Below are positions 1,386 through 62,030 of a DNA stretch of 64,000 bases, one piece after another. The DNA is from an uncultured Candidatus Saccharibacteria bacterium (GTDB lineage: Bacteria; Patescibacteriota; Saccharimonadia; Saccharimonadales; JALRHH01): assembly GCA_964639295.1 (NCBI GenBank), contig CAZXDT010000003.1, positions 1,304-65,303 of the forward strand. The letters run 5' to 3'. The position numbers were made by a program, and so were the translations under genes. Below the pieces are notes generated by a model. The model worked only from the letters and a program-made list of their open reading frames with translations. It was not told where the DNA came from and did not search any database. Within the stretch, counting starts at the first letter, position 1. Each line of letters starts with the position of its first letter.

Positions 1386-1515
1386 TTTGTTTTTCCTTTT
1401 ATATACTTTGTTTATTTTTTAGTATTAATGACCTATTTTTACCATAATACTCTGGGTAAACGCAAGCACTTTCACAGCATAGTTTTCCACAGGTAAGCAC
1501 TGAGGTGCACGCACT

Positions 1516-1666
1516 CCACACTTGAGATCATTTGGATTTGTTTGAGCGAAACGTAAAGGAGCCGTACTTAGGTACGGTGACTGTGTATCGTAAGCAAACA
1601 AATTCGAAGGAGCCAAGAGGCTGGCGGGTTACAAGCTCAGCTTGTAAGCAGGCCAGCCGGTGTGGG
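1516..1666 (+). ncRNA. Family-1 structured intergenic element, copy A (candidate ncRNA or REP-like repeat)
   Basis: Closing stem CCACAC/GTGTGG; hairpin GCCGTAC-ttag-GTACGGT; terminal hairpin GGCTGGC..TTACAAGCT-ca-AGCTTGTAA..GCCAGCC. Homologous to copies at 27247, 37809 and 61161. Confidence 0.6.
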
Positions 1667-1680
1667 GTGTGTTTGCAGTA

Positions 1681-1778: not shown

Positions 1779-3104
1779 TTAGAAAGTAGCAGTTGCTATA
1801 AAGTCTGCTTGCACAGTGTACGAACCAGTTGGTGTCGTAATACCTGACAGAGCTGCAAACTTTAGAATCAATGCTTCGTCGTCGATAACCTTTACTGCTG
1901 AACCAGTTGAGGTCGCGATGGTTGTCGTGTTAGCAGGATCTGCGTCCCAGGCATAACCACCATTTGTGGTGCCAGCTACTTGGTCGATATCAGTTACGAA
2001 TGTACCTGTACCGTTGCCGTCGTATGCTCCATCACGGACTACATTACAACCTACGCCACCAGCGGCACATGTGTATGCACTGGTGCTACCACCGTTGATG
2101 CCGGCAATGGTCATACCGAATTTCTCACCGGTTGTACCAACTATAAATGCGCCTTGTGATGCACTTGTGTTGAAACATTGGTCAGTTGTACTTGTAGATA
2201 TTGGAGAAGCAGTACAAGTCGCACCGGGCACTTTGAGGGAGCCAGAGCTGGTCTCTGAAAGCGAGTGATATGCAATACTCGCACCGTTAAAGGCGTTTGT
2301 ACGGATCATCGCTATCGCGTTGGTGTTACTACCACCGTTAGTTGTACTCACCGGAGACACGTTAGTAGCACTGCTATCGATGTTACCGATATCAACACTA
2401 GAGGTACCAGCAAGGGTGACTGCTGCACAGTCTGCACCAGGTGTCGTAGTATCGGTGTTAACTGTTGTTGATGCCACACAGAAGTCTAGACGTTCCTGGA
2501 CACGTGCGTTGACGGTCAAGGTCTGTGAAGTACTTTGTGCGAAGACACCTTCCCACTTCAAACTCGTAGCAGGGTTGTCGTCGTAGATACGTACACGTGT
2601 GTAGTACGACTTGTTGACTGCTGCATTGTTAGTAATGTCAGCTGCACCAAGCGTAATTTTTAGTGCCGTTTTACTTGTTGCATCGTCGGCATTGGTCTTA
2701 ACGATATCAATCTGGTTATTTAAACCGTTAGATGATGCCGTACGACCATCCACTCGCGTGGTCGAGGTAACCGCAGTACTCGTCCACGGACCCGACAGTG
2801 TGGCAGTTGGTGCTATAGCAACACTTGGCGTGTTTACGGTTGTACACGTACCAAGCGGGCTGTCACAGAACTGGATTTCGATTGTCTTTGCATTCGCAGT
2901 ATCAGCCGTAGTATTGAACGTCCACTCTAATTGAGTGTTCGTCGAGGGTTGGGCACTCGTAGATGTAAGCATACGAGATGTAATGGTCGGAGCAGCTCCT
3001 GCTGTCGCTGGCAAAAGTGCTGGCAACACTCCAACTGCCCCAAGAATTACAACCTTAGTCCACAACGATACCCTACGCATTTGTAGAGTTATGTTTTGAG
3101 ACAT
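1779..3104 (-). CDS. Secreted Thr/Ser-rich surface protein, tandem paralog 2 (441 aa from the AAGGAG-preceded ATG)
   Basis: Long ORF. The ATG at 3104 is preceded by AAGGAG; the ORF track starts 21 nt upstream at 3125. Has a signal peptide and is a paralog of the 66..1385 product. Confidence 0.8.
   Translation of the reverse strand: MSQNITLQMRRVSLWTKVVILGAVGVLPALLPATAGAAPTITSRMLTSTSAQPSTNTQLEWTFNTTADTANAKTIEIQFCDSPLGTCTTVNTPSVAIAPTATLSGPWTSTAVTSTTRVDGRTASSNGLNNQIDIVKTNADDATSKTALKITLGAADITNNAAVNKSYYTRVRIYDDNPATSLKWEGVFAQSTSQTLTVNARVQERLDFCVASTTVNTDTTTPGADCAAVTLAGTSSVDIGNIDSSATNVSPVSTTNGGSNTNAIAMIRTNAFNGASIAYHSLSETSSGSLKVPGATCTASPISTSTTDQCFNTSASQGAFIVGTTGEKFGMTIAGINGGSTSAYTCAAGGVGCNVVRDGAYDGNGTGTFVTDIDQVAGTTNGGYAWDADPANTTTIATSTGSAVKVIDDEALILKFAALSGITTPTGSYTVQADFIATATF
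2221..2558. repeat. 338-bp tract 100% identical to 508-845 (inside paralog 2)
   Basis: Same manual comparison. The identical spurious + strand ORFs 552..758 and 2265..2471 in the ORF track confirm it. Confidence 0.9.
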
Positions 3105-3379
3105 ATAGTTCTCCTTAATTAACATACGTGGTGCGCACAGAGAGCCTGCATATCTTAGGATCTGGATTTAATAACAAGCAAGAGAAGCCTTCAAGCACAC
3201 GAACTAGACCAATTATATGGATTCGTTTTACTAACGGCGTCGCAAGCTGTCACTTTAGCGTCGCATATGTTTGATTTATATTGATTGTTTTTGTTTTAGG
3301 TTAATATGCACACTATTCATACCATATTATTGTGCATTAGCACAAGCAGTTATCCACAGATACACGTATCCCCTACTAC

Positions 3380-4858: not shown

Positions 4859-5155
4859 CTGTTCTTCCCTCTCGGGACCCCCATATGGATTTACTGCCAT
4901 TATTGCACACAACACTAAAAACACAACCACTTACGAGGAGGGGTTGTTAAAGTGTGTACGCAACGCTGAACTGCAAAACAAGCTGAGAACGGTCAGTCAG
5001 AAGTTCAAAAATGTGCTTTACAGTGTCCAGTAATGTTTGTGTTGTTTGTACCAAATGTACCGTAGCATATTTTTACTACAAGCACAAGCGTGACTGATTG
5101 CGGTTATGTTTTTGACTGCAAACATAGTATTATTGATGCAAGAAGACCAGAGGCC

Positions 5156-6154
5156 ATGGATAATAAATCAGAAGATACAAATCAGCCAGAAAAACCTGAG
5201 AACACTGAGCCAGTGTCCGGTTCAAGCAACGCTGAAGGCGAAAGCCTTGAAGGCAGTACTGATGCAACTGCGTCTTCTGATGTAAAAGTAAGCGCGCCAA
5301 AACAAAGCATTGGTAAGCGTATTCAGGGACTCATAACAGGCTTGAACATCTACCTTATACTGTTTATTTTCATCGTGGTACTTGCCGCAGGTATCGTTAT
5401 GATTGGCATTCAGAAAAACAAAAAAGCTGCCACGCCAACTACTGTTAACACCCAGACGCTATCCGCTGACGAACTCAAGAAAATCGCCGAAAGCGAACAA
5501 AAAGTTGGCGATCCTAAGTCAACGCTATCTATCGAATCTAATGCTATCTTCAGCGGTAAAGTACTGATCCGTGACAGTTTAGACGTTGCGGGAACTATCA
5601 AGGTGGGTGGGGCATTGAGTCTACCAGGCATTAGCGTGTCCGGGGAGAGTAGCTTCGACCAGATCAAAGCTAACAACCTAACTATTACCGGTAACACGGC
5701 TATCCAAGGTCAATTAAGTATCCAAAAGGGTATAACCAGCAGTGGCGGTGCAAGCTTTGGTGGACCTATCTCTGCCCCTATCTTGACGGTTCAGAGCCTA
5801 CAAATCAGTGGTGATTTACAGATCACTCGACATATTGACGCAGGTGGTGGCACACCAGGAAAGGTAGATGGCAGTTCGTTAGGATCTGGCGGAACCGTAT
5901 CTATTAGTGGTAGCGACACAGCTGGGACAATAACCATCAATACCGGTGGTGGCCCGGGTGCAGGTTGTTTCGTGACCGTTAACTTCACGCAGAAATTCAG
6001 TGGCAATCCACACGTTGTTGTATCCCCTGTTGGTTCAGGTGCGGCGTCACTCCAGTACTACATAAACCGAAACAGCAGTAACTTTAGCCTCTGCACCGCC
6101 AATGCCCCAGGTGGTGGCCAAAGCTTCTCATTCGACTACATAGCCATCGACTAA
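5156..6154 (+). CDS. Membrane-anchored protein with Gly-rich beta-helix-like repeats
   Basis: ORF. ATG 5156 is preceded by AGAGG; the ORF track starts at GTG 5090. One TM segment, then repeated G-x-L/I-x-V/I-x-G motifs. Confidence 0.7.
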   Translation: MDNKSEDTNQPEKPENTEPVSGSSNAEGESLEGSTDATASSDVKVSAPKQSIGKRIQGLITGLNIYLILFIFIVVLAAGIVMIGIQKNKKAATPTTVNTQTLSADELKKIAESEQKVGDPKSTLSIESNAIFSGKVLIRDSLDVAGTIKVGGALSLPGISVSGESSFDQIKANNLTITGNTAIQGQLSIQKGITSSGGASFGGPISAPILTVQSLQISGDLQITRHIDAGGGTPGKVDGSSLGSGGTVSISGSDTAGTITINTGGGPGAGCFVTVNFTQKFSGNPHVVVSPVGSGAASLQYYINRNSSNFSLCTANAPGGGQSFSFDYIAID

Positions 6155-6177
6155 TCTAACACCTCACAAAGGGTTCT

Positions 6178-6293
6178 GAGCTTGAGTGTAGCTTGGGATG
6201 CTCATCGAGGCTTGACCTTGAGGCGTACTAAAAGTACGGCGAAAGGTCAGACGTAAGATAAGCGCCCAAGATGCGCCAAGGTCTGAAGCCGCC
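6178..6293 (+). ncRNA. Family-1 element, divergent/truncated copy E
   Basis: CTTGAG..TTGGGAT head. Stem GACCTT/AAGGTC encloses hairpin CGTAC-taaaa-GTACG. Then ACGTAAG and GCGC-ccaagat-GCGC. The long 3' hairpin is missing. Confidence 0.4.
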
Positions 6294-6294
6294 T

Positions 6295-6618
6295 TTAGAT
6301 ATCGAGAAAAACCACGACTTCGTCAGCTTTTACATGCATAATCCCACGCGCAATCTTAATATGCTCCTCATTATCATCCGTACGCACAATAATATCGCCT
6401 GAGTTTAGCAATGTCATGAAGTTGTGGTGCTTGGGCAATATGTCGAAAGTACCGGTATCGTTCACACCGGAAATACTGTTTGCCTCACCGTCAAAATACA
6501 CTTTAAATGGTGCATAGACCTTGACGTGCATCGTCTTGCCGTCAACTCGCGATTCAGGAATTGCGGCATTGGTAGCGGTATCTTTATGCTCGACAGGTTT
6601 GTTGTCATCTTCTGGCAT
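6295..6618 (-). CDS. atpC: F1 ATP synthase epsilon subunit
   Basis: Last gene of the atp operon. Epsilon-like beta-sandwich sequence (ILPKHHNFMTLL...). The true start may be the internal MHVKVY. Confidence 0.8.
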   Translation of the reverse strand: MPEDDNKPVEHKDTATNAAIPESRVDGKTMHVKVYAPFKVYFDGEANSISGVNDTGTFDILPKHHNFMTLLNSGDIIVRTDDNEEHIKIARGIMHVKADEVVVFLDI

Positions 6619-11161: not shown

Positions 11162-11771
11162 TGCTCAAATCCTTTATAATCGCCTCTTTATTCGCGCTCA
11201 TATCGCTGAGAATAAATTCAAGCTGGTCATTCAAGTCAATCTGATCACCAATAGCCATCAAGACATAGTGGTTTACGATATCTGCCATGTTTTCTTCGAA
11301 TCGCTGTACCAAACGCTGCTTCTCTGCCTCAATCTCTTTGAGTAGCTGGCTGCCCATAAGCTGACGTTGTTCTTCGATGGCCTCTTGTGTTTTGGTAATT
11401 GATTCGAGAGCGAGCGTCTTGGCATCCGTAATAGACTGCTCATATTTAGTAAACTCTTCCTGAAGTTTCTGAGTAATCTCACTCTTCATGTACTCGTTAA
11501 GTTCAGAAGTTGTCAGACGAAGATCCTGCTGCAAGAACATAGCGTTCTCACCAATAATCTTTTCAAAGTGCAAACGACCCCTGTTACGGAGTTCTTCACG
11601 GAATTCTTCGTTGAAGATGCGTTCTACGTCTTTTTCAGCGCCCTCTGTCAGGGCATCGACTGCATTCTTACCCTTTTTATTCGGTGAAGACATGCTCAAG
11701 GCAAGCCAAATAAATGAAGCTGTTGCTGCACCGATAGTACTCAAGATCAGAACTAATCCCCAGATACTCAC
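11151..11771 (-). CDS. atpF: ATP synthase Fo subunit b
   Basis: Single N-terminal TM followed by a long charged coiled coil; operon position. Confidence 0.75.
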   Translation of the reverse strand: MSIWGLVLILSTIGAATASFIWLALSMSSPNKKGKNAVDALTEGAEKDVERIFNEEFREELRNRGRLHFEKIIGENAMFLQQDLRLTTSELNEYMKSEITQKLQEEFTKYEQSITDAKTLALESITKTQEAIEEQRQLMGSQLLKEIEAEKQRLVQRFEENMADIVNHYVLMAIGDQIDLNDQLEFILSDMSANKEAIIKDLSNGA

Positions 11772-24931: not shown

Positions 24932-25312
24932 TGGTGGAGCTGGCGGGGTACCGCCCCCCGCGTCCGCTAGTTTATCTAATTAGTCTATCCTACAGGTATA
25001 GTTTGCTTGAATACAACATGGAGTGAAAGCAAACAAAAGTCCACGAGGTTTGATCCTTGTCTTAGTCCGACTACGGATCAATTGCCGGAAGCATCCAGAA
25101 ATATATGTTACGACTAGTGCTATCTGGCGTCACTCTAGGCGCAGCTGTAGGCAATTAAGCTACAGCGAAAGCAGGCTCAGGGAACAAACGTGCCTTGAGG
25201 TCTGCAATCAAAGAAGTGCGATCTGCAATTACTTTGAGTTTGTCTATAACGCTGACAAGCGACCTGCTGATCTAACTGATAAAGTCCAACGTCGAGCTTA
25301 AAATTCAGCCCC
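24932..25312 (-). ncRNA. ssrA: tmRNA (SsrA)
   Basis: 5' GGGGCTGAATTTTAAGCTCGACG. 3' ...CCCCGCCAGCTCCACCA. Acceptor stem with a G3-U pair. Internal tag ORF ...ADRTSLIADLKARLFPEPAFAVA-TAA. Confidence 0.9.
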
Positions 25313-26687: not shown

Positions 26688-27224
26688 ATGAGCAAAACAC
26701 ATATTAGAAAGTTCAAGTGGGCGTACATACTGCTGTTTTTTGTACTAGCTATTGGTTATGTCATTTTCCGTTTCTTTAACCCCAGTGTTGGTTTTACCTA
26801 CTATGAACCCTCCTACGTACCAGCAAACATATCTGTTAAAACCAAAAGAATAAGCATCACTCGGGGGAATGTTCAGGTAGAGCAAGACTTCAGAACAGAA
26901 GATTGGGTCTACAGCATTAGTGAGTACAAATCCGACGAGTCAATTGGTGACGCAAAGCAAAACTACGACCCTAAAAGCATTACACCAACATGCGAGATCC
27001 GAATTTCACCAGTCAAGACACAGTATCGCTTATGTCACTGGATTGACTATGGAAAAATCGACGTTCACGAAATTAAGTTTATAAAGAATGGTACTTTTAT
27101 AGATGCACAAATTCCTACTGAACTAAAGGATCAGATCACCGTAGATCAGCTAGACACCTTTGTTGATTCGTTCAAGAAAAAGAGTACGATTGGCCTGCCT
27201 GTACTCCGTTCTAACGGAGCCTAA
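26688..27224 (+). CDS. Membrane-anchored hypothetical protein (178 aa)
   Basis: ORF with an N-terminal TM segment. Confidence 0.7.
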   Translation: MSKTHIRKFKWAYILLFFVLAIGYVIFRFFNPSVGFTYYEPSYVPANISVKTKRISITRGNVQVEQDFRTEDWVYSISEYKSDESIGDAKQNYDPKSITPTCEIRISPVKTQYRLCHWIDYGKIDVHEIKFIKNGTFIDAQIPTELKDQITVDQLDTFVDSFKKKSTIGLPVLRSNGA

Positions 27225-27246
27225 TAACTTGTGCGGACAACAGGTT

Positions 27247-27397
27247 CCACACTTGAGCCAATTTGGATTTTCTTCTGCGAAACGTAAAGGAAACGTATCT
27301 AAATACGTTGACTGCGTATCGTAAAGAAGAAAATTCGAAGTGGCCAAGAGGCCAGCGGGTCATGGGCTCCGCTCATGAGCAGGCTGGCCGGTGTGGG
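27247..27397 (+). ncRNA. Family-1 structured intergenic element, copy B
   Basis: CCACAC...GTGTGG closing stem; hairpin AACGTAT-ctaa-ATACGTT; terminal hairpin GGCCAGC..TCATGGGC-tcc-GCTCATGA..GCTGGCC. Confidence 0.6.
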
Positions 27398-27405
27398 ATC
27401 TGTGA

Positions 27406-28632
27406 CTACCAGTAGTGGTGAGCGATCCAGAAATTGTATGCTCCCGACCAGCTGCCATATCGCCCGGATGCATAGCCACTACACCACTTCAGCTGTGTTA
27501 CTGGGTTTGTTCCCCAGTCAGCACCAGCTGTAGCCATCTTGCTGCCTGGGAGTGCCTGACAGAGACCAAACGCACCACTTGGGTTACGTGCAGCCGCGTT
27601 CCAGCCTGATTCACGGCTGACAATGTAGTTCACATACGGGAAGTCAGATCGGCTGATACCTGCAGCAAGCATTGTTGCTTCCTTATCTGCTGGGATAAAT
27701 ACAGCGCGGCCACGGGCAACAATCTGTTTAACTGGTTCTACTGCGACAATCGACTGTATTTCCTTACGACCAACTTCTTTGCCGTTTTGTGTATCTACCT
27801 GATAAGTAACCAATTTTTTACCTGGAGTTCCCTTTTGCCTGACGGCAACAGATCCAAATGACAGACTCGGGTCCTCAATAGTCTGTACTTCGTTTGCAAT
27901 TACTTGTTCCTCAGTAACTACCTTACTACCGTTACGGACAACAAAAATCTGTGACTGAGGTGTAATTGGCGTCTCTGTTGCAGGCTGCACAGTATCGTCC
28001 TTAGCTAGTTCTACTTTCTTTTCCTTGAGCAACTCACCGACGGTCTTTGCGTGCGTACGTACTGGTACCTGCGTGCCGTATAAGTTCAAGTTAGTTGGCG
28101 TAGCGCGATCAATAACAACCTTCTCACCAATCGCTCCATCACGGAGGAAGTCAGTCTCCATTTGGCTTTCAATCTTGTCCTCCGGGAAGACATCTACTCC
28201 AGCCTGGCTCGCCACACTACGCGGTGTTGTAGCAGCGCTAAAGGCAAATGTCTTACGACCGTTATCAATGACGGTTACTGGACGTGATCGATAAATATTA
28301 ATACGGAACTTCTCATCCAAGATTGGCGTGTCAGCGCTCGGCTCAACAATATCACCTTCGTTAAGCGGAATGTTTACACGCTGCAGGAACTCACCAACTG
28401 TCTTGGCACGAGTTGGCAGTGTCTCTTGTTTCTTGTCATGGCTAAAAACAACCAAGTGGGAATCAGACGGAACAACCTTTTCTGCACTCGTAGAAACAAA
28501 AATAGCTAGAGATGCAAAAAACAGCACCAATATCATTACCACTGGGATAACTAATGGGTGTTTGTGCCAATTGTGGCGGGTCAACCATGCAATTGGCTTA
28601 CGCCAATGTATTGTAGGTTTAGGTATAGTCAT
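27406..28632 (-). CDS. RpfB/YabE-like cell-wall protein (DUF348 repeats, G5 domain, C-terminal transglycosylase-like domain)
   Basis: N-terminal TM; repeated KTVGE(F/L)L..(V/I).L motifs; G5-like VRQKGTPGKKLVTYQV; C-terminal SRESGWNAAARNPSGAFGLCQALPGSKM. Confidence 0.8.
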   Translation of the reverse strand: MTIPKPTIHWRKPIAWLTRHNWHKHPLVIPVVMILVLFFASLAIFVSTSAEKVVPSDSHLVVFSHDKKQETLPTRAKTVGEFLQRVNIPLNEGDIVEPSADTPILDEKFRINIYRSRPVTVIDNGRKTFAFSAATTPRSVASQAGVDVFPEDKIESQMETDFLRDGAIGEKVVIDRATPTNLNLYGTQVPVRTHAKTVGELLKEKKVELAKDDTVQPATETPITPQSQIFVVRNGSKVVTEEQVIANEVQTIEDPSLSFGSVAVRQKGTPGKKLVTYQVDTQNGKEVGRKEIQSIVAVEPVKQIVARGRAVFIPADKEATMLAAGISRSDFPYVNYIVSRESGWNAAARNPSGAFGLCQALPGSKMATAGADWGTNPVTQLKWCSGYASGRYGSWSGAYNFWIAHHYW

Positions 28633-37579: not shown

Positions 37580-37654
37580 TGGTGATCTCGAGGGGAGTCG
37601 AACCCCTGTTACCAGGATGAAAACCTGGTGTCCTAACCGTTAGACGACGAGACC
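37580..37654 (-). tRNA. tRNA-Glu(UUC), CCA encoded
   Basis: Manual cloverleaf: GGTCTCG acceptor stem, anticodon loop TTTTCAT, T-arm GGGGTTCGACTCCCC. Confidence 0.95.
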
Positions 37655-37720: not shown

Positions 37721-37752
37721 AAACCCCTCCCTAGTGAAAGAGAGGGGTTTTC
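37721..37752. terminator. Bidirectional hairpin terminator
   Basis: AAACCCCTC...GAGGGGTTT flanked by A and T runs. Confidence 0.6.
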
Positions 37753-37808
37753 TGGCCTATAGGCCGGAGCGGTCAGTCAAACTACTCGTTTGGCTGGGAC
37801 CGACATAT

Positions 37809-37959
37809 CCATACTTGAGACAATTTGGATGCGACTCTGCGGAGTACAAGGAGCCGTACTAAAGTACGGTGACTGCACCCCGCAAAAAGAGGCAAGTTCA
37901 AATGGTCCAAGAAGCCAGCGGGTCGCGAGCTCCGCTCGTGAGCAGGCTGGCTGGTATGG
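37809..37959 (+). ncRNA. Family-1 structured intergenic element, copy C (most divergent full copy)
   Basis: Closing stem CCATAC/GTATGG; stem GCGGAGTAC/GCACCCCGC; hairpin GCCGTAC-taaa-GTACGGT; terminal hairpin AGCCAGC..TCGCGAGC-tcc-GCTCGTGA..GCTGGCT. Confidence 0.6.
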
Positions 37960-37968
37960 AATGTCGGG

Positions 37969-39378
37969 TTAGCTACGACGAGCTAACACAAGGCGGTGAG
38001 CCATAGCACCAGCTACTGTAATAGCAGCAAAGATACCAAGGATATCGCCAGCACCAGTATCTACCAACTTAGTTGGAGTCTCTGGAGTGTTGTAGTTTAC
38101 TTTACCTTCACATACGCTTGTCTGATCAACGTCATTAACATTGAATCGAACAGTTGCGGTAAGTGAATATTCACCATCTTCGGCGTATGTGTGCTCTACA
38201 TTTGCTACCTTGTCAGTAACAAGTGGCGTAGAACCATCACCAAAGTCGTATGTTACGTTCTTGAACGTAACACCGTTCTTGGCAGTGTACTTAACACCGA
38301 GGTTGACCTTACGGCCATCAAGCTTAGCAACCTGCAAGAGATCACACTTGTACTCGGGAGCTGTAGTTACACAATCCTTTTGTACGTTAACCGTCGCAGA
38401 GTCGTTGTATTGACCAGTTTGGTCAGTATCAACAACTGCGATGTTCTTGATGTTGTTCATGCCACAAGCAAGACTTGTGCCTGGGTCTACTGTTGCCACA
38501 AATGTGATCAACGCAGAAGCACCTGGCAAGAGTGTGCCGACATTTTTACGGCCACTGAAGAAAGCGTTTGCTTCATCAGCAGTCATAACCGTACCATTGT
38601 ATGAACCGTAAAACTTCTTGGCTGTGCCAGGGACGAATGTTACGCCCTTTGGAAGTGGGTCACGGAGGTATACGTTAGTAAGGTTTGTGTTACTCAAGTT
38701 CTTAGCTTGAACAATGTATTCAACACGAGCACCAGGCTGTGCAACTAAGTTGTCAGTAGCCTGAGTTGTGCCACCTTCATTGTGCACGTACTTGTAGATA
38801 CCAACTGATGGGATCTTAACACGAGCCATGAAAGTAACGGTTGCTTCGAACTCGTGACAAGGCTTAACATCTTCAATAACTGCACCACTAAGGATAATGC
38901 TATCGTTGATTTGCTGTGTCACAAGGTTCTGGTCGGTACGAGTACCAACGTTGTGCTTCCAGTAGACGCTACCAGGAATAAATTCTAGGTTAGCGTCTGC
39001 ACGGTTTAAGTTAACCGTAGCGGTGTCGGTAATGGTGTTGGTGTTATCACCCTTCATCGTTACCTTTACAACTTGGTTCGTACCAGCAGCAGTTGGCATA
39101 TCAATCTTGATTTTAAAGTTTTCCGCAACACGGTTAGATTCCGGTAGTTCGCGGTTGTGGTAGTAGACAGAGAATTTTACAACTTCGTCATACTTCGCAT
39201 TTGTGCTTGTCTTGTATGTAGTTTCACCAGTAGTCTGGTTGGCTACGCCAATAGATCCTTCCATGAGGACATCAACTGCCATCACAGAGTGGATTGGAAG
39301 TGCAATCAAAGCAAGTAATGTAACCATAAATAGGCTCACTCGCTTTGGAGCACGCTTTAGGTATGAAAATAGTTTCAT
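37969..39378 (-). CDS. Cell-surface repeat protein (DUF11-like beta-sandwich) with a C-terminal sorting-signal-like tail
   Basis: Signal peptide. C-terminus LVDTGAG, then a hydrophobic stretch, then RLVLARRS. AAGGAG RBS. Confidence 0.8.
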   Translation of the reverse strand: MKLFSYLKRAPKRVSLFMVTLLALIALPIHSVMAVDVLMEGSIGVANQTTGETTYKTSTNAKYDEVVKFSVYYHNRELPESNRVAENFKIKIDMPTAAGTNQVVKVTMKGDNTNTITDTATVNLNRADANLEFIPGSVYWKHNVGTRTDQNLVTQQINDSIILSGAVIEDVKPCHEFEATVTFMARVKIPSVGIYKYVHNEGGTTQATDNLVAQPGARVEYIVQAKNLSNTNLTNVYLRDPLPKGVTFVPGTAKKFYGSYNGTVMTADEANAFFSGRKNVGTLLPGASALITFVATVDPGTSLACGMNNIKNIAVVDTDQTGQYNDSATVNVQKDCVTTAPEYKCDLLQVAKLDGRKVNLGVKYTAKNGVTFKNVTYDFGDGSTPLVTDKVANVEHTYAEDGEYSLTATVRFNVNDVDQTSVCEGKVNYNTPETPTKLVDTGAGDILGIFAAITVAGAMAHRLVLARRS

Positions 39379-51419: not shown

Positions 51420-51496
51420 GGGCCAGTAGCTCAGCTGGTTAGAGCACCTGCCTCTTAAGCAGGGTGTCGAGGGTTCGAGTCCCTCCTGGCCCTCCA
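51420..51496 (+). tRNA. tRNA-Lys(CUU), CCA encoded
   Basis: Manual cloverleaf: GGGCCAG acceptor stem, anticodon loop CTCTTAA, T-arm GAGGGTTCGAGTCCCTC. Confidence 0.95.
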
Positions 51497-54835: not shown

Positions 54836-55387
54836 ATGAACGAATCAAACCAAAACACCCCACAAACAGCTGAAACAGATCAAACAACTGTAGAAGCATC
54901 AAAAAACAATAAATTTAGGAAAGCCCTTACCGCTGCAGCATCAGTAGTTGCATTGACCGGCTTAGTAGGTGGCGCAGCACTTGTCGAACAGTCAAACGAC
55001 ACTGCCTCACATGCAGTTAGCGAAAAGCCAGCTCCAGCAAACCCAGAAGTTACAGCGCCTGAGAAGCAAGTAGTTGTTCCTGGTGAGACACTCACTGAAT
55101 TGCCTCAGCCGGTACAAGTAGAGTCAACACAGGATTCTAATGAACAGGTTCAAACACCTGCTGAAACCTCTGATGACAACAATGTTAAAGAGTCTAGAAT
55201 GCCAAGTGAACCAATGGTTACTGAACCTTCTGAACCGAAGATGCCAAGTGAACCAATGGTTACTGAGCCTACTACTCCTGAAGTCACACCAACGGATACC
55301 CCAACTGAATTTGTTTCAGATGGTGGTCCTACCGAAGGACCTACTGAGTTCGTATCTGATGGTGGTCCCGTAGAACCCAAGCAGTAA
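54836..55387 (+). CDS. Membrane-anchored Pro/Thr/Glu-rich protein with tandem peptide repeats
   Basis: TM segment (ALTAAASVVALTGLVGGAAL). Repeats MPSEPMVTEP x2 and PTEFVSDGGP x2. Confidence 0.7.
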   Translation: MNESNQNTPQTAETDQTTVEASKNNKFRKALTAAASVVALTGLVGGAALVEQSNDTASHAVSEKPAPANPEVTAPEKQVVVPGETLTELPQPVQVESTQDSNEQVQTPAETSDDNNVKESRMPSEPMVTEPSEPKMPSEPMVTEPTTPEVTPTDTPTEFVSDGGPTEGPTEFVSDGGPVEPKQ

Positions 55388-55583: not shown

Positions 55584-55660
55584 TGGTACACCCGGCAAGA
55601 TTCGAACTTGCGACACCTGGTTCCGAAGACCAGTGCTCTAATCCACTGAGCTACGGGTGC
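55584..55660 (-). tRNA. tRNA-Arg(UCG), CCA encoded
   Basis: Manual cloverleaf: GCACCCG acceptor stem, anticodon loop CTTCGGA, T-arm GCAAGTTCGAATCTTGC. Confidence 0.95.
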
Positions 55661-59623: not shown

Positions 59624-61153
59624 ATGGGCATTATGTCAGATACAAACGAGAAAATTGGTCACCTTATTTATCAAGTACGACAAGAACGCGGTATGACGCA
59701 AGCAGAGTTTGCACGCAAGCTCGGTACCAGTCAATCAGCCGTTAACCGTATAGAACACGGCAAACAGAATCTCAGCCTTGAGACACTCGGCCGCATCAGT
59801 GATGTACTGAAGAAGCCCTTGATTACCCTTGGCACCAACGCGATGAACTTCAAAATTGAAGGTGGCCATGAACTCAGTGGGACTATCCAAACAAATGTAT
59901 CCAAGAACGCTGCGGTTTGTCTCTTATTTGCTGCCCTACTCAATAAAGGAACAACGCGGTTCAAACGTATGCCTCGCATTGAAGAGGTCTACCGAATTAT
60001 CGAAGTGCTGACGAGTATTGGTGTCGGTGTTAAATGGCTACCTGGTAATGATTTAGAGATTAAACCCCCTGCTGAAATCAACATGAGCAAGATGGACAAT
60101 GTCGCTGCACGTAAAACCCGCAGTGTCATTATGATGCTTGGCCCACTCATGCACCTGTTTGACGATTTCCGGATCCCATACGCTGGTGGCTGTAAGCTTG
60201 GTACTCGTACCGTTCAGCCGCACCTGTTTGCTCTTGAGGAATTTGGCGTTGATATCATCGCCAAGACCGGCTTCTACCAGGTTAATGTAACCAAGAAGCA
60301 GCCAGAAGAGATTGTGCTGTACGAATCTGGTGACACCACTACAGAAAACGTCATTATGGCTGCTGCCAAATTTGACGGCGAAGTAACTATCAAGATGGCT
60401 AGTGCTAACTACATGGTCCAAGACCTGTGTATCTTCCTTAAGAAACTTGGTGTCAAAATTGACGGTATTGGTACCAGCACACTCAAGATCCGTGGCGTAA
60501 AAGACATTAAGAAGAACGTTACGTATTCACCAAGCGAAGACCCTATTGAATCTATGACCTTCATTGCTGCTGCAGTTGCTACCAACTCAAAGCTCACTAT
60601 TTCTCGCTCACCGATTGAATTCCTGGAGCTAGAACTCCTTAAGCTCAAGAAAATGGGACTCAAAGTTGATGTATCGGAAAAGTACAAAGCCGATAACGGA
60701 CACACTGATCTTGCGGACATTACCGTCCATAAACACAACGGCGAACTACGTGCGCTAGAAGAAAAGATCTATGCTCGTCCCTTCCCTGGGCTTAATATCG
60801 ATAACCTGCCACTATTTGTACCAATTGCCGCAGTCGCTAAAGGCCGCACATTGATCCATGACTGGGTCTATGAAGAACGCGCGCTGTACTACACAGAAAT
60901 GCGTAAACTAAACGTCAACGTCACCTTAGCCGATCCACACCGTGCATACATTGACGGGCCAACCAAGTGGAGTGCAGCTGATGTCGTCTGCCCACCTGCA
61001 CTGCGCCCAGCAATGCTGCTTCTTATTGGTATGTTGGCTGCAAATGGTGACTCTGTGCTACGTAACGTCTACTCCATTAACCGTGGATATGAAGATTTTG
61101 CAGAACGACTCAGTAGTGTCGGGGCGCATATCTCCCTAATGCACGAGATTTAG
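59624..61153 (+). CDS. murA: XRE-HTH domain fused to UDP-GlcNAc 1-carboxyvinyltransferase
   Basis: Residues ~10-65 form an HTH (RGMTQAEFARKLGTSQSAVNRIEHGKQN). The rest is MurA-like (SKNAAVCLLFAALL; active-site loop GGCKLGTRTV). The start may be ATG 59633. Confidence 0.9.
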   Translation: MGIMSDTNEKIGHLIYQVRQERGMTQAEFARKLGTSQSAVNRIEHGKQNLSLETLGRISDVLKKPLITLGTNAMNFKIEGGHELSGTIQTNVSKNAAVCLLFAALLNKGTTRFKRMPRIEEVYRIIEVLTSIGVGVKWLPGNDLEIKPPAEINMSKMDNVAARKTRSVIMMLGPLMHLFDDFRIPYAGGCKLGTRTVQPHLFALEEFGVDIIAKTGFYQVNVTKKQPEEIVLYESGDTTTENVIMAAAKFDGEVTIKMASANYMVQDLCIFLKKLGVKIDGIGTSTLKIRGVKDIKKNVTYSPSEDPIESMTFIAAAVATNSKLTISRSPIEFLELELLKLKKMGLKVDVSEKYKADNGHTDLADITVHKHNGELRALEEKIYARPFPGLNIDNLPLFVPIAAVAKGRTLIHDWVYEERALYYTEMRKLNVNVTLADPHRAYIDGPTKWSAADVVCPPALRPAMLLLIGMLAANGDSVLRNVYSINRGYEDFAERLSSVGAHISLMHEI

Positions 61154-61160
61154 CCAGCTT

Positions 61161-61309
61161 TCACACTTGAGCCAATTTGGATTTTGTTCTGCGAAACGTA
61201 AAGGAGCCGTACTAAGGTACGGTGACTGCGTCACGTAAAGAGGAAAATTCGAAGGGGCCAAGAGGCCAGCGGATGGCGAGCTCCGCTCGACAGCAGGCTG
61301 GCTGGTATG
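61161..61309 (+). ncRNA. Family-1 structured intergenic element, copy D
   Basis: TCACAC...GTATGA closing stem; GCGAAACGT/GCGTCACGT stem; GCCGTAC-taag-GTACGGT hairpin; GGCCAGC..CGAGC-tcc-GCTCG..GCTGGCT. Confidence 0.6.
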
Positions 61310-61436
61310 AATGCTGGCTAACGTAGAAGATCTTCTAGGTGAGACTTGTAGCCTGTCTTTAGATACATAATGTAGCTCAACGCTATAACAATGAGTGTCA
61401 CTAATATGACTGTTCGTTGCCATTCTTTGAGGTTTT

Positions 61437-62030
61437 TCATGGGCGAACCTCTGCAAGTTTAGCTGTAATTACTAACCTATCTTTTGCGGACCATAATGGA
61501 GTACATGTGTAGATCGTTAGTGTTGGATCTGCTGTTTGAGCTATGAGTGATGTATCTGTTGGGGGTACTTGGTTAACACCAGTTACCAAATAATCGTATC
61601 GTTTGCCCTGCCAATATAATGTCATTTCATCACCGGTATGTACTTTATCGAGGTAATAAAAAACTGCTTTGCCACTATAAGTGAATCGGTGCCCTGCCAT
61701 AATTGTGTTACCACCAATAATTGGCGTGCTGTTATCTGGTAGGTGCCATATACCTTTGTTAAGAGTGTGTTGATCTGGTCCATCAAACACCTCCTCTCGC
61801 ATATTGAGTACTGGAATGACCAATGTGTTTTGTTGAGGGATCGGGGCATTTACAGCAACACTGGTTGGAGCTTTATGTGAAATCACGGGCGCCTCATATC
61901 GCGTCCACCAGGTTAATGCAGGTAAAAATGGCCATGCAAGAATATACAACGCCAAAACAATAACTACTACTGCTAAACCATTATTAAGGCGACGATGGGT
62001 AATAATGCCATGCATGTACCTATTGTACAT
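61437..62030 (-). CDS. Sortase-family transpeptidase
   Basis: N-terminal TM; catalytic His context (MAGHRF); TLxTC-type motif LTIYTCTP; downstream Arg. Confidence 0.85.
   Translation of the reverse strand: MYNRYMHGIITHRRLNNGLAVVVIVLALYILAWPFLPALTWWTRYEAPVISHKAPTSVAVNAPIPQQNTLVIPVLNMREEVFDGPDQHTLNKGIWHLPDNSTPIIGGNTIMAGHRFTYSGKAVFYYLDKVHTGDEMTLYWQGKRYDYLVTGVNQVPPTDTSLIAQTADPTLTIYTCTPLWSAKDRLVITAKLAEVRP

Follow-up and report, generated by a model that had tools for sequence, protein, structure and literature searches.

Saccharibacteria and other bacteria of the candidate phyla radiation have tiny and densely packed genomes, and to our knowledge little is known about their mobile DNA and non-coding RNA. 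In a 64,000-nt stretch of one such genome (Candidatus Saccharibacteria, contig CAZXDT010000003.1; the whole stretch is here referred to as the window), a structured element designated copy B lies between a 178-aa membrane ORF and an RpfB-like gene, which raises the question of what this element is and whether it serves its two neighbours. A preliminary description had placed it at 27247-27397 in a convergent gap, i.e., 22 nt after the stop codon of the + strand gene and 8 nt before that of the RpfB-like gene, had taken it for a member of a repeat family, and had proposed that it may form the 3' ends of both transcripts or insulate them from each other. The rechecked coordinates bear out the arrangement and both distances (RpfB-like stop codon at 27406-27408), and the description stands as a whole. 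The proposed role does not share this standing, as there is no positive evidence for it and several comparative results speak against it as the element's reason for being there.

The explanation favoured here, with moderate confidence, is that copy B belongs to a non-autonomous, non-coding mobile structured repeat family confined to a Candidatus Saccharibacteria lineage. The observations underlying it are a dispersed repeat, a covarying and strand-specific fold, presence or absence at orthologous sites, and precise insertions without target duplication. The family is a bacterial interspersed structured repeat of undescribed form and is specific to the Saccharibacteria lineage.

Copies in the window and in related contigs

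The first 40 nt of copy B recur at 61159 with two mismatches (0 such recurrences expected by chance), and a repeat search of the window returned three to four copies of the element. A covariance model (R1) built from nine sequences identified four full copies (A to D), all on the + strand, with scores of 144-170 bits and E-values of 1e-28 to 1e-34 (Table 1), confirming that copy B is a repeat-family member. A rod-type relative, composed of the closing stem and the long arm of the fold, was recognised more clearly by an arm-only model (R2), which scores the long arm of copy B at 100.1 bits. Units of the full, three-way-junction form measure approximately 165-175 nt and those of the rod-type form approximately 120 nt. 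The window copies are 68-82% identical to one another, and none is a recent donor of another. Elsewhere in the window, a 33-nt unit is repeated at 42-nt spacing with 94% identity (55199-55273), inside ORF 54836-55387.

The limits of copy B depend on what is counted. The model core scores 169.9 bits with R1, and the whole inserted unit was delimited by homology with copy C, whose exact indel boundaries exceed the model match by 11 nt at its start and by 7 nt at its end. Since the closing stem runs into copy-variable sequence, the closed and folded unit is 27240-27403; only 2 nt then separate it from the RpfB-like stop codon, and 15 nt from that of the + strand gene.

Table 1. Coordinates of the element copies, of the parts of copy B, and of neighbouring features (window positions unless a contig is named)
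Feature	Location	Whole unit	Strand	Remarks
Copy A	1514-1667	1506-1677	+	Between two minus-strand paralogues
Copy B	27245-27398	27234-27405	+	R1 model match; unit limits by homology with copy C
Copy C	37807-37961	37796-37968	+	173-nt clean indel relative to L009
Copy D	61159-61312	61154-61317	+	Between MurA stop and convergent 40-aa ORF stop
Rod-type relative	6171-6290		+	P1 and P2, no P3; R1 20 bits, R2 62.4 bits
P1 closing stem of copy B, 5' strand	27240-27253		+	Pairs with 27390-27403, 14 bp
P1 closing stem of copy B, 3' strand	27390-27403		+	Ends 2 nt before RpfB-like stop
P2 long arm of copy B	27254-27346		+	38 bp with small internal loops; base CUUGAG/CCAAG
P3 short arm of copy B	27350-27389		+	16 bp; GGCCAGC...GCUGGCC, inner CAUGGGC-UCC-GCUCAUG
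178-aa membrane ORF	26688-27224		+	Upstream of copy B, same strand
RpfB-like gene	27406-28632		-	Pfam DUF348 and G5, RpfB/YabE-like; stop 27406-27408
Canonical bidirectional intrinsic terminators	1694-1715, 37724-37745			G+C-rich hairpin with A-run/T-run flanks; outside the elements
Diverged three-way-junction copies	L012 9290-9446, 3536-3696			R1/R2
Rod-type members	L012 11246-11342; L014 11239-11336; L001 5475-5570			R1/R2
Second, inverted copy	L005 7936-8092			R1/R2

Twelve additional members, one of them a deleted remnant, were found in the related Candidatus Saccharibacteria contigs L001-L005, L012, and L014, of which L001 is from a Candidatus Saccharibacteria MAG and L002-L005 are from metagenomes. 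In blastn comparisons of these loci with the window, similarity is confined to the element (69-88% identity). Members occur in at least six unrelated metagenomes, and the element sequence is identical in three independent assemblies; duplicate contigs are identical as well, with no within-population polymorphism among them. With this recurrence and the E-values given above, a chance palindrome or an assembly artefact is exceedingly improbable. No copy was found in about 80 kb of the relatives L009-L011 and L016-L021, a patchy distribution as expected for a mobile element.

Phage, plasmid, and viral collections contained no match to the element. At the gathering threshold, Rfam 15 reported for the whole window just one tmRNA (24932-25312, -) and three tRNAs (37583-37654, -; 51420-51493, +; 55587-55660, -), and no family for the element, while permissive Rfam scans of copies B, C, and D returned only unrelated eukaryotic miRNA/lncRNA noise (E > 0.3). 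A full-text literature search yielded no account of repeats or structured RNAs in Saccharibacteria and no comparable element.

The genes next to the copies are housekeeping or surface-protein genes. The tandem paralogues on either side of copy A and its terminator (66-1385 and 1779-3125, -; 439 and 448 aa) share DNA stretches of 74-83% identity and have no Pfam or NCBIfam match. The rod-type relative occupies a convergent gap between ORF 5090-6154 (+) and atpC (6295-6618, -). ORF 5090-6154, the sole + strand gene of a minus-strand block, encodes 354 aa without a Pfam, NCBIfam, or PDB match; its acidic N-terminus, single membrane helix, and repetitive glycine/serine/threonine-rich C-terminal half give it the appearance of a surface protein. 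The 178-aa membrane ORF next to copy B has no family match either and is missing from the RpfB-KsgA gap of the relatives L009, L012, and L014. It starts only 24 nt from the divergent KsgA start, and thus the KsgA promoter must overlap it. Another relative carries different genes in this gap, which thus resembles a gene-insertion hot spot.

Fold, covariation and strand asymmetry

The fold was tested on nine sequences that were aligned without reference to structure. Their consensus is a three-way junction formed by a closing stem (P1), a long arm (P2), and a short arm (P3), in which 93.2% of 602 cells (nine sequences, 67 pairs) are standard pairs and 31 of the 67 pairs show compensatory, i.e., both-sided, changes. 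None of 500 shuffled controls reached the observed pairing and compensation, and when partners were slid by 1-3 columns the pairing fell to 31-40%. The preliminary description had caught a small part of this covariation, namely two pairs in the apical hairpin of P2 (27292-27309; AACGTAT at 27292-27298, ATACGTT at 27303-27309). These two pairs do covary, as C-G to A-U and C-G to U-A relative to GCCGTAC/GTACGGT, and the family tip is GYCGUAC.

P1 combines variable sequence with preserved pairing. It reaches 13-20 bp, extending into copy-variable sequence; its outermost 6-7 bp differ in every copy while complementarity is kept within each, its inner stem CCACAC/GUGUGG is semi-conserved, and both-sided changes are found at 10 of the 12 pairs of its consensus. 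In P2, the internal loop AAAGGA...GUGACUG is conserved and may contain tandem G.A pairs. P3 is missing from the rod-type relatives, and its hairpin shows no sequence kinship with the apical hairpin of P2. Across the element, loop and junction nucleotides are conserved above the stems. The alignment contains 1-2-nt indels between copies, which preclude a shared reading frame, and coding potential was accordingly rejected. Hammerhead and other small ribozymes were considered for the three-way junction and rejected, as the junction strands measure only 0-2 nt and CGAAAC is not conserved.

One strand folds better than the other, and it is the same strand in all 14 plus two members tested, with a difference of 3-30 kcal/mol. 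With RNA parameters, copy B reaches -90.5 kcal/mol (+; z = -10.3), against -61 kcal/mol for the opposite (gene) strand, and DNA parameters give -48.8 against -32.7; RNAalifold on the four window copies gave -80.8 kcal/mol for the + strand and -47.6 kcal/mol for the minus strand, and the rod-type relative showed -61 versus -45 kcal/mol. Both strands of copy B fold well beyond shuffled sequence (z = -6.6 for the gene strand). A manual count of pair types gave about 49 G.U cells versus about 7 A.C cells on the better-folding strand. Cytosine deamination was rejected as the source of this G.T asymmetry, since it would be expected to produce the asymmetry on the opposite strand, and the asymmetry is therefore read as selection. 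The + strand of the window has a negative GC skew and the minus strand holds most genes, from which the folded strand appears to be the leading-strand template and also the template strand of most genes.

This asymmetry bears directly on whether the gene-strand RNA is the functional molecule, e.g., as a 3'-UTR module that blocks exonucleases or stabilises the mRNA of the abutted gene. The element begins 0-5 nt past the stop codon, its gene strand still folds well, and at copy C and at the two L012 copies L012a and L012b no transcript other than that of the gene strand is sure to cross it. However, all members fold worse on the gene strand, where the approximately 49 G.U pairs become C.A mismatches, so that selection for structure acts on the opposite strand, and the same genes lack the element in close relatives. 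A gene-strand module is accordingly regarded as very unlikely.

Filled and empty sites at stop codons

Orthologous sites with and without the element were compared to define the insertions. At copy C, the flanks in the window and in the relative L009 are 88-93% identical on both sides, and the window carries 173 extra nt. On the gene strand, the empty site of L009 reads ...GGC TAA followed directly by GCCAAACGAG, and the filled site reads ...AGC TAA, then the insert (CCCGACAT...GTCGGTCCC), and then AGCCAAACGAG. The insert begins 0 nt past the TAA that ends the DUF11/PKD gene 37969-39378. It extends no more than 4 nt beyond P1 and left no target duplication relative to L009 (1-nt ambiguity only); further TAG and TGA triplets within 30 nt downstream are unused. 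Copy D had first been taken as lying 125 nt from a sortase gene and in fact abuts the stop codon of an unlisted 40-aa ORF (61318-61440). MurA and this ORF have homologous end codons in the window and in L016; six relatives have 0-12 nt between the two stop codons, against 164 nt in the window, all of it element, such that copy D exactly fills the space between the MurA stop (61151-61153) and the 40-aa ORF stop (61318-61320), again without target duplication. Possible 3-nt direct repeats were seen in three of 12 copies when boundaries were allowed to shift, and at neither of the two clean sites (C and D).

Insertions are also found inside operon-like gene pairs. L012a separates UvrD from NUDIX, a pair that overlaps by ATGA or TAATG in L009 and in the window; it sits 5 nt ahead of the NUDIX start codon, and the Shine-Dalgarno sequence GGGAG, 6 nt ahead of that start, comes from its P1. 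The second L012 copy fills the PK-PGK gap, which measures 19-21 nt in the window and L009, and L014 retains an internally deleted remnant of the PK-PGK copy with decayed stem pairing. Insertion into the loop of a pre-existing hairpin was considered as an explanation for the variable outer stems, and the stop codon of the copy C empty site does lie within a small hairpin loop. This was rejected, as a hairpin would not fit into the stop/start overlap at the L012a site and a weak consensus, ACACGU, is common to the outer stems; together these indicate that the outer stems belong to the element. The element occupies the RpfB-KsgA gap not only in the window but also in L012 and L014. That gap holds none in L009, the closest relative, and has instead, 2 nt past the RpfB stop codon (11230-11260), a plain 11-bp hairpin (ATGAGGGAACC-GGAATA-GGTTCCCTCAT) with no T-run. 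The site may be either a hot spot or the location of an old copy.

Of the 16 members, 13 have the 3' end of their folded strand, taken as the end of P1, within 0-5 nt of the in-frame stop codon of a gene on the other strand: 0 nt in C, D, L001a, L001b, L002, L004, L012a, and L012b; 2 nt in B (at the RpfB-like stop codon) and L005b; 4 nt in the rod-type member of the window (atpC stop codon, 6295-6297); and 5 nt in the rods after RpfB in L012 and L014. Copy A lies just beyond a canonical terminator and not at a stop codon, L005a is the one exception in orientation (sense, upstream of GluRS), and the L003 locus is too short to judge. Of the members between co-directional genes, eight are antisense (A, C, L001a, L004, L012a, L012b, and the rods after RpfB) and one is sense (L005a). 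Where the gap is convergent, in four cases, it is the majority-strand gene whose stop codon is tightly abutted. On the gene strand, most copies have TAA, TAG, or TGA as their 5' flank and two have TAC, with no fixed tetranucleotide.

This precision at in-frame stop codons, combined with an antisense, leading-strand-template polarity, fits no described mechanism for bacterial repeats. A rather doubtful possibility is that the family represents a novel type of mobile element, or of structured nucleic acid, targeted to the nucleotide directly past in-frame stop codons and always to the template strand of the gene, by an enzyme recognising the single-stranded three-way junction. If so, the preference for in-frame stops over nearby TAA, TAG, and TGA triplets would imply that gene ends are sensed in some way, e.g., through a link with translation termination or with R-loops, or else that the folded antisense strand has a host function at gene 3' ends.

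Transcription at the copies and comparison with known systems

A host function of the kind first proposed would make the element a cis-acting structure that ends or processes convergent transcripts, or blocks antisense transcription into gene 3' ends. A terminator scan of both copy B neighbours found no G+C-rich hairpin with a U-tract, its one terminator-like match being a 5-bp stem inside the element, and the earlier statement that neither gene has a canonical T-run terminator is thus upheld. This lack near copy B would suit a terminator or insulator, as would the far better than shuffled folding of both strands and the plain hairpin that holds the position of copy B in L009; with 13 of 16 members abutting a stop codon and the folded strand aimed into the gene 3' end, the layout is also that of a one-way antisense barrier. 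However, no U-tract follows any stem on the folded strand or a hairpin on either strand, the gene strand offering after the short arm an invariant CUCUUGG and nothing more U-tract-like. Canonical terminators adjoin copies A and C, from which it follows that the organism uses ordinary T-run terminators. The L012 copies stand between co-transcribed genes, and at L012a there is no promoter room before the NUDIX start, so that gene-strand transcription must read through. In addition, the copy C and D sites are empty in close relatives, whose genes do fine without the element, the L009 RpfB-KsgA gap likewise lacks it, and a 170-nt three-way junction with conserved loops exceeds the needs of a simple terminator. 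A cis-acting role of this kind is hence unlikely as the main explanation, and any terminating or insulating effect, such as copy B may have on its neighbours, would be no more than secondary.

Alternatively, the copies could encode trans-acting structured small RNAs or protein-binding RNAs, made from the + strand by divergent promoters or by 3' UTR processing with P1 as the processing site. Covariation with G.U pairs on one strand and the conservation of loops and junctions above stems are in line with this, as are the positions of six members in the 3' UTR of a co-directional gene, with the rest facing a promoter region, and of copy A, which lies 27 nt ahead of a terminator that is effective in the + direction as well. 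Against it, a search for sigma-70-like promoters upstream of copies A-D found none, and L012a has no promoter space. Copy C has 4 nt beyond P1 and a bidirectional terminator between any upstream + transcript and the element, which suggests that its folded strand is probably not transcribed. Gain and loss among close relatives, together with a decayed remnant, are unlike a conserved RNA gene, and no Rfam family matches. We therefore consider a trans-acting RNA quite unlikely. Elsewhere in the relatives, extended -10 motifs (TRTGGTAnAAT) were noted ahead of genes (L012 3697-3712, L014 2555-2575, L009 11395-11417); one in L009 lies 7 nt ahead of the KsgA ATG, which suggests that leaderless mRNAs are common in the lineage.

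For the mobile repeat favoured here, a mobilising machinery would recognise the strand-specific fold with its many G.U or G.T pairs in a single-stranded intermediate. This intermediate could be an RNA copy or else ssDNA, the substrate that HUH/Y1 enzymes use at REP or IS200/IS605-type ends. The covariation would then reflect selection on propagating element lineages rather than host function at each locus, and copy B would be a tolerated insertion in a convergent gap, from which the neighbouring 3' UTRs gain, at most as a secondary effect, a stable hairpin. Several findings run counter to mobility, among them the lack of a recent donor among the window copies and a strand polarity opposite to that of IS200/IS605 elements. 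The conservation of loops and junctions above stems and the occupation of the RpfB-KsgA gap in three lineages would also fit a host-level function. No transposase, reverse transcriptase, HUH, or recombinase gene was found near any copy, and the mobilising enzyme is not encoded in the window.

Among known systems, the REP/REPIN elements of RAYT (Y1 HUH) transposases are similarly short, non-coding, extragenic, and highly structured, lie mainly after gene ends and between convergent genes, lack target duplications, and keep their pairing by compensatory change. They are mobilised in trans and thought to move single-stranded, to which the Saccharibacteria element is likened. However, REP/REPINs are 20-40-nt palindromes or doublets with a conserved GTAG-like 5' tetranucleotide, whereas this element measures 165-175 nt in its three-way-junction form and approximately 120 nt as a rod, has no conserved terminal tetranucleotide, and inserts exactly at in-frame stop codons with fixed antisense polarity; the tested neighbours of the element (64 kb of genome) gave no Y1_Tnp match. 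A composite or RAYT-like arrangement was considered for L005 and rejected, as nothing but GluRS and a DUF3048 protein lies between the two inverted copies. The PATEs, miniature elements derived from IS200/IS605 and associated with ssDNA peel-and-paste transposition, resemble the element in lacking classical terminal inverted repeats and target duplication, in the seamless junctions of filled and empty sites, and in a strong orientation bias; the gene-strand TAA, TAG, or TGA of most copies may also correspond to the very short one-strand target on whose 3' side PATEs insert. They have similar subterminal hairpins at both ends, an active strand on the lagging-strand template, and a fixed tetranucleotide target, in contrast to the dissimilar ends, the C-rich folded strand on the putative leading-strand template, and the coincidence with in-frame stop codons found here. 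The TnpB/omega-RNA arrangement was likewise rejected: + strand ORF 5090-6154 precedes the rod-type member, but it resembles a membrane-anchored glycine-rich surface protein. A retron ncRNA was dismissed for the lack of a reverse transcriptase, the wrong order of arms, and the many copies.

MITEs and structured repeats such as Correia/NEMIS, ERIC, BOX, RUP, and SPRITE resemble the family in size (100-200 nt), in many dispersed copies with presence/absence polymorphism, and in a stable hairpin, if transcribed, with possible side effects on neighbour transcripts. The element is, like them, small, non-coding, and multi-copy with filled and empty orthologous sites, but has neither the sequence-conserved terminal inverted repeats nor the target duplications (e.g., TA) of MITEs. 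A classical, DDE-transposase-derived MITE was rejected for the outer stem that differs per copy and the absence of duplication at C and D. Integron attC sites also lie directly past the stop codon of the preceding ORF, with the folded functional strand antisense to that ORF and, in sedentary chromosomal arrays, on the leading-strand template, and conserve structure above sequence. An attC identity was rejected, as the ends have no R''/R' boxes (RYYYAAC/GTTRRRY) and there is no cassette array or integrase; unlike attC sites, the copies are 10-26 kb apart among housekeeping genes and form a three-way junction with conserved loops. Intrinsic (Rho-independent) terminators share the stable stem-loop right after genes and the convergent gap, but the element has no U-tract, is approximately five times larger, and occurs also within operon-like pairs and alongside canonical terminators at A and C.

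The family indicates that a structured non-coding element can spread in a dense genome via a position that is always free, namely the nucleotide past a stop codon, even inside operons and without leaving a duplication behind. Its strand-specific folding, antisense polarity, and stop-codon precision lie outside any described mechanism of bacterial repeats, and the mobilising activity, if found, could be a new way of recognising insertion sites. In practice, the element serves as a marker of recent genome change in the Saccharibacteria lineage. It is also an annotation trap, as spurious ORFs cross copy D, e.g., the listed 106-aa ORF 61136-61456. The unlisted 40-aa ORF on the minus strand next to copy D encodes a membrane peptide (MKNLKEWQRTVILVTLIVIALSYIMYLKTGYKSHLEDLLR), its start overlaps the sortase stop (ATGA), and it is conserved beside sortase in relatives as a 36-41-aa gene. 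On the other side of copy D, MurA (59624-61153, +; EPSP_synthase fold) carries an N-terminal XRE-type HTH_3 domain, and this HTH_3-MurA fusion is kept in more than 100 Saccharibacteria homologues.
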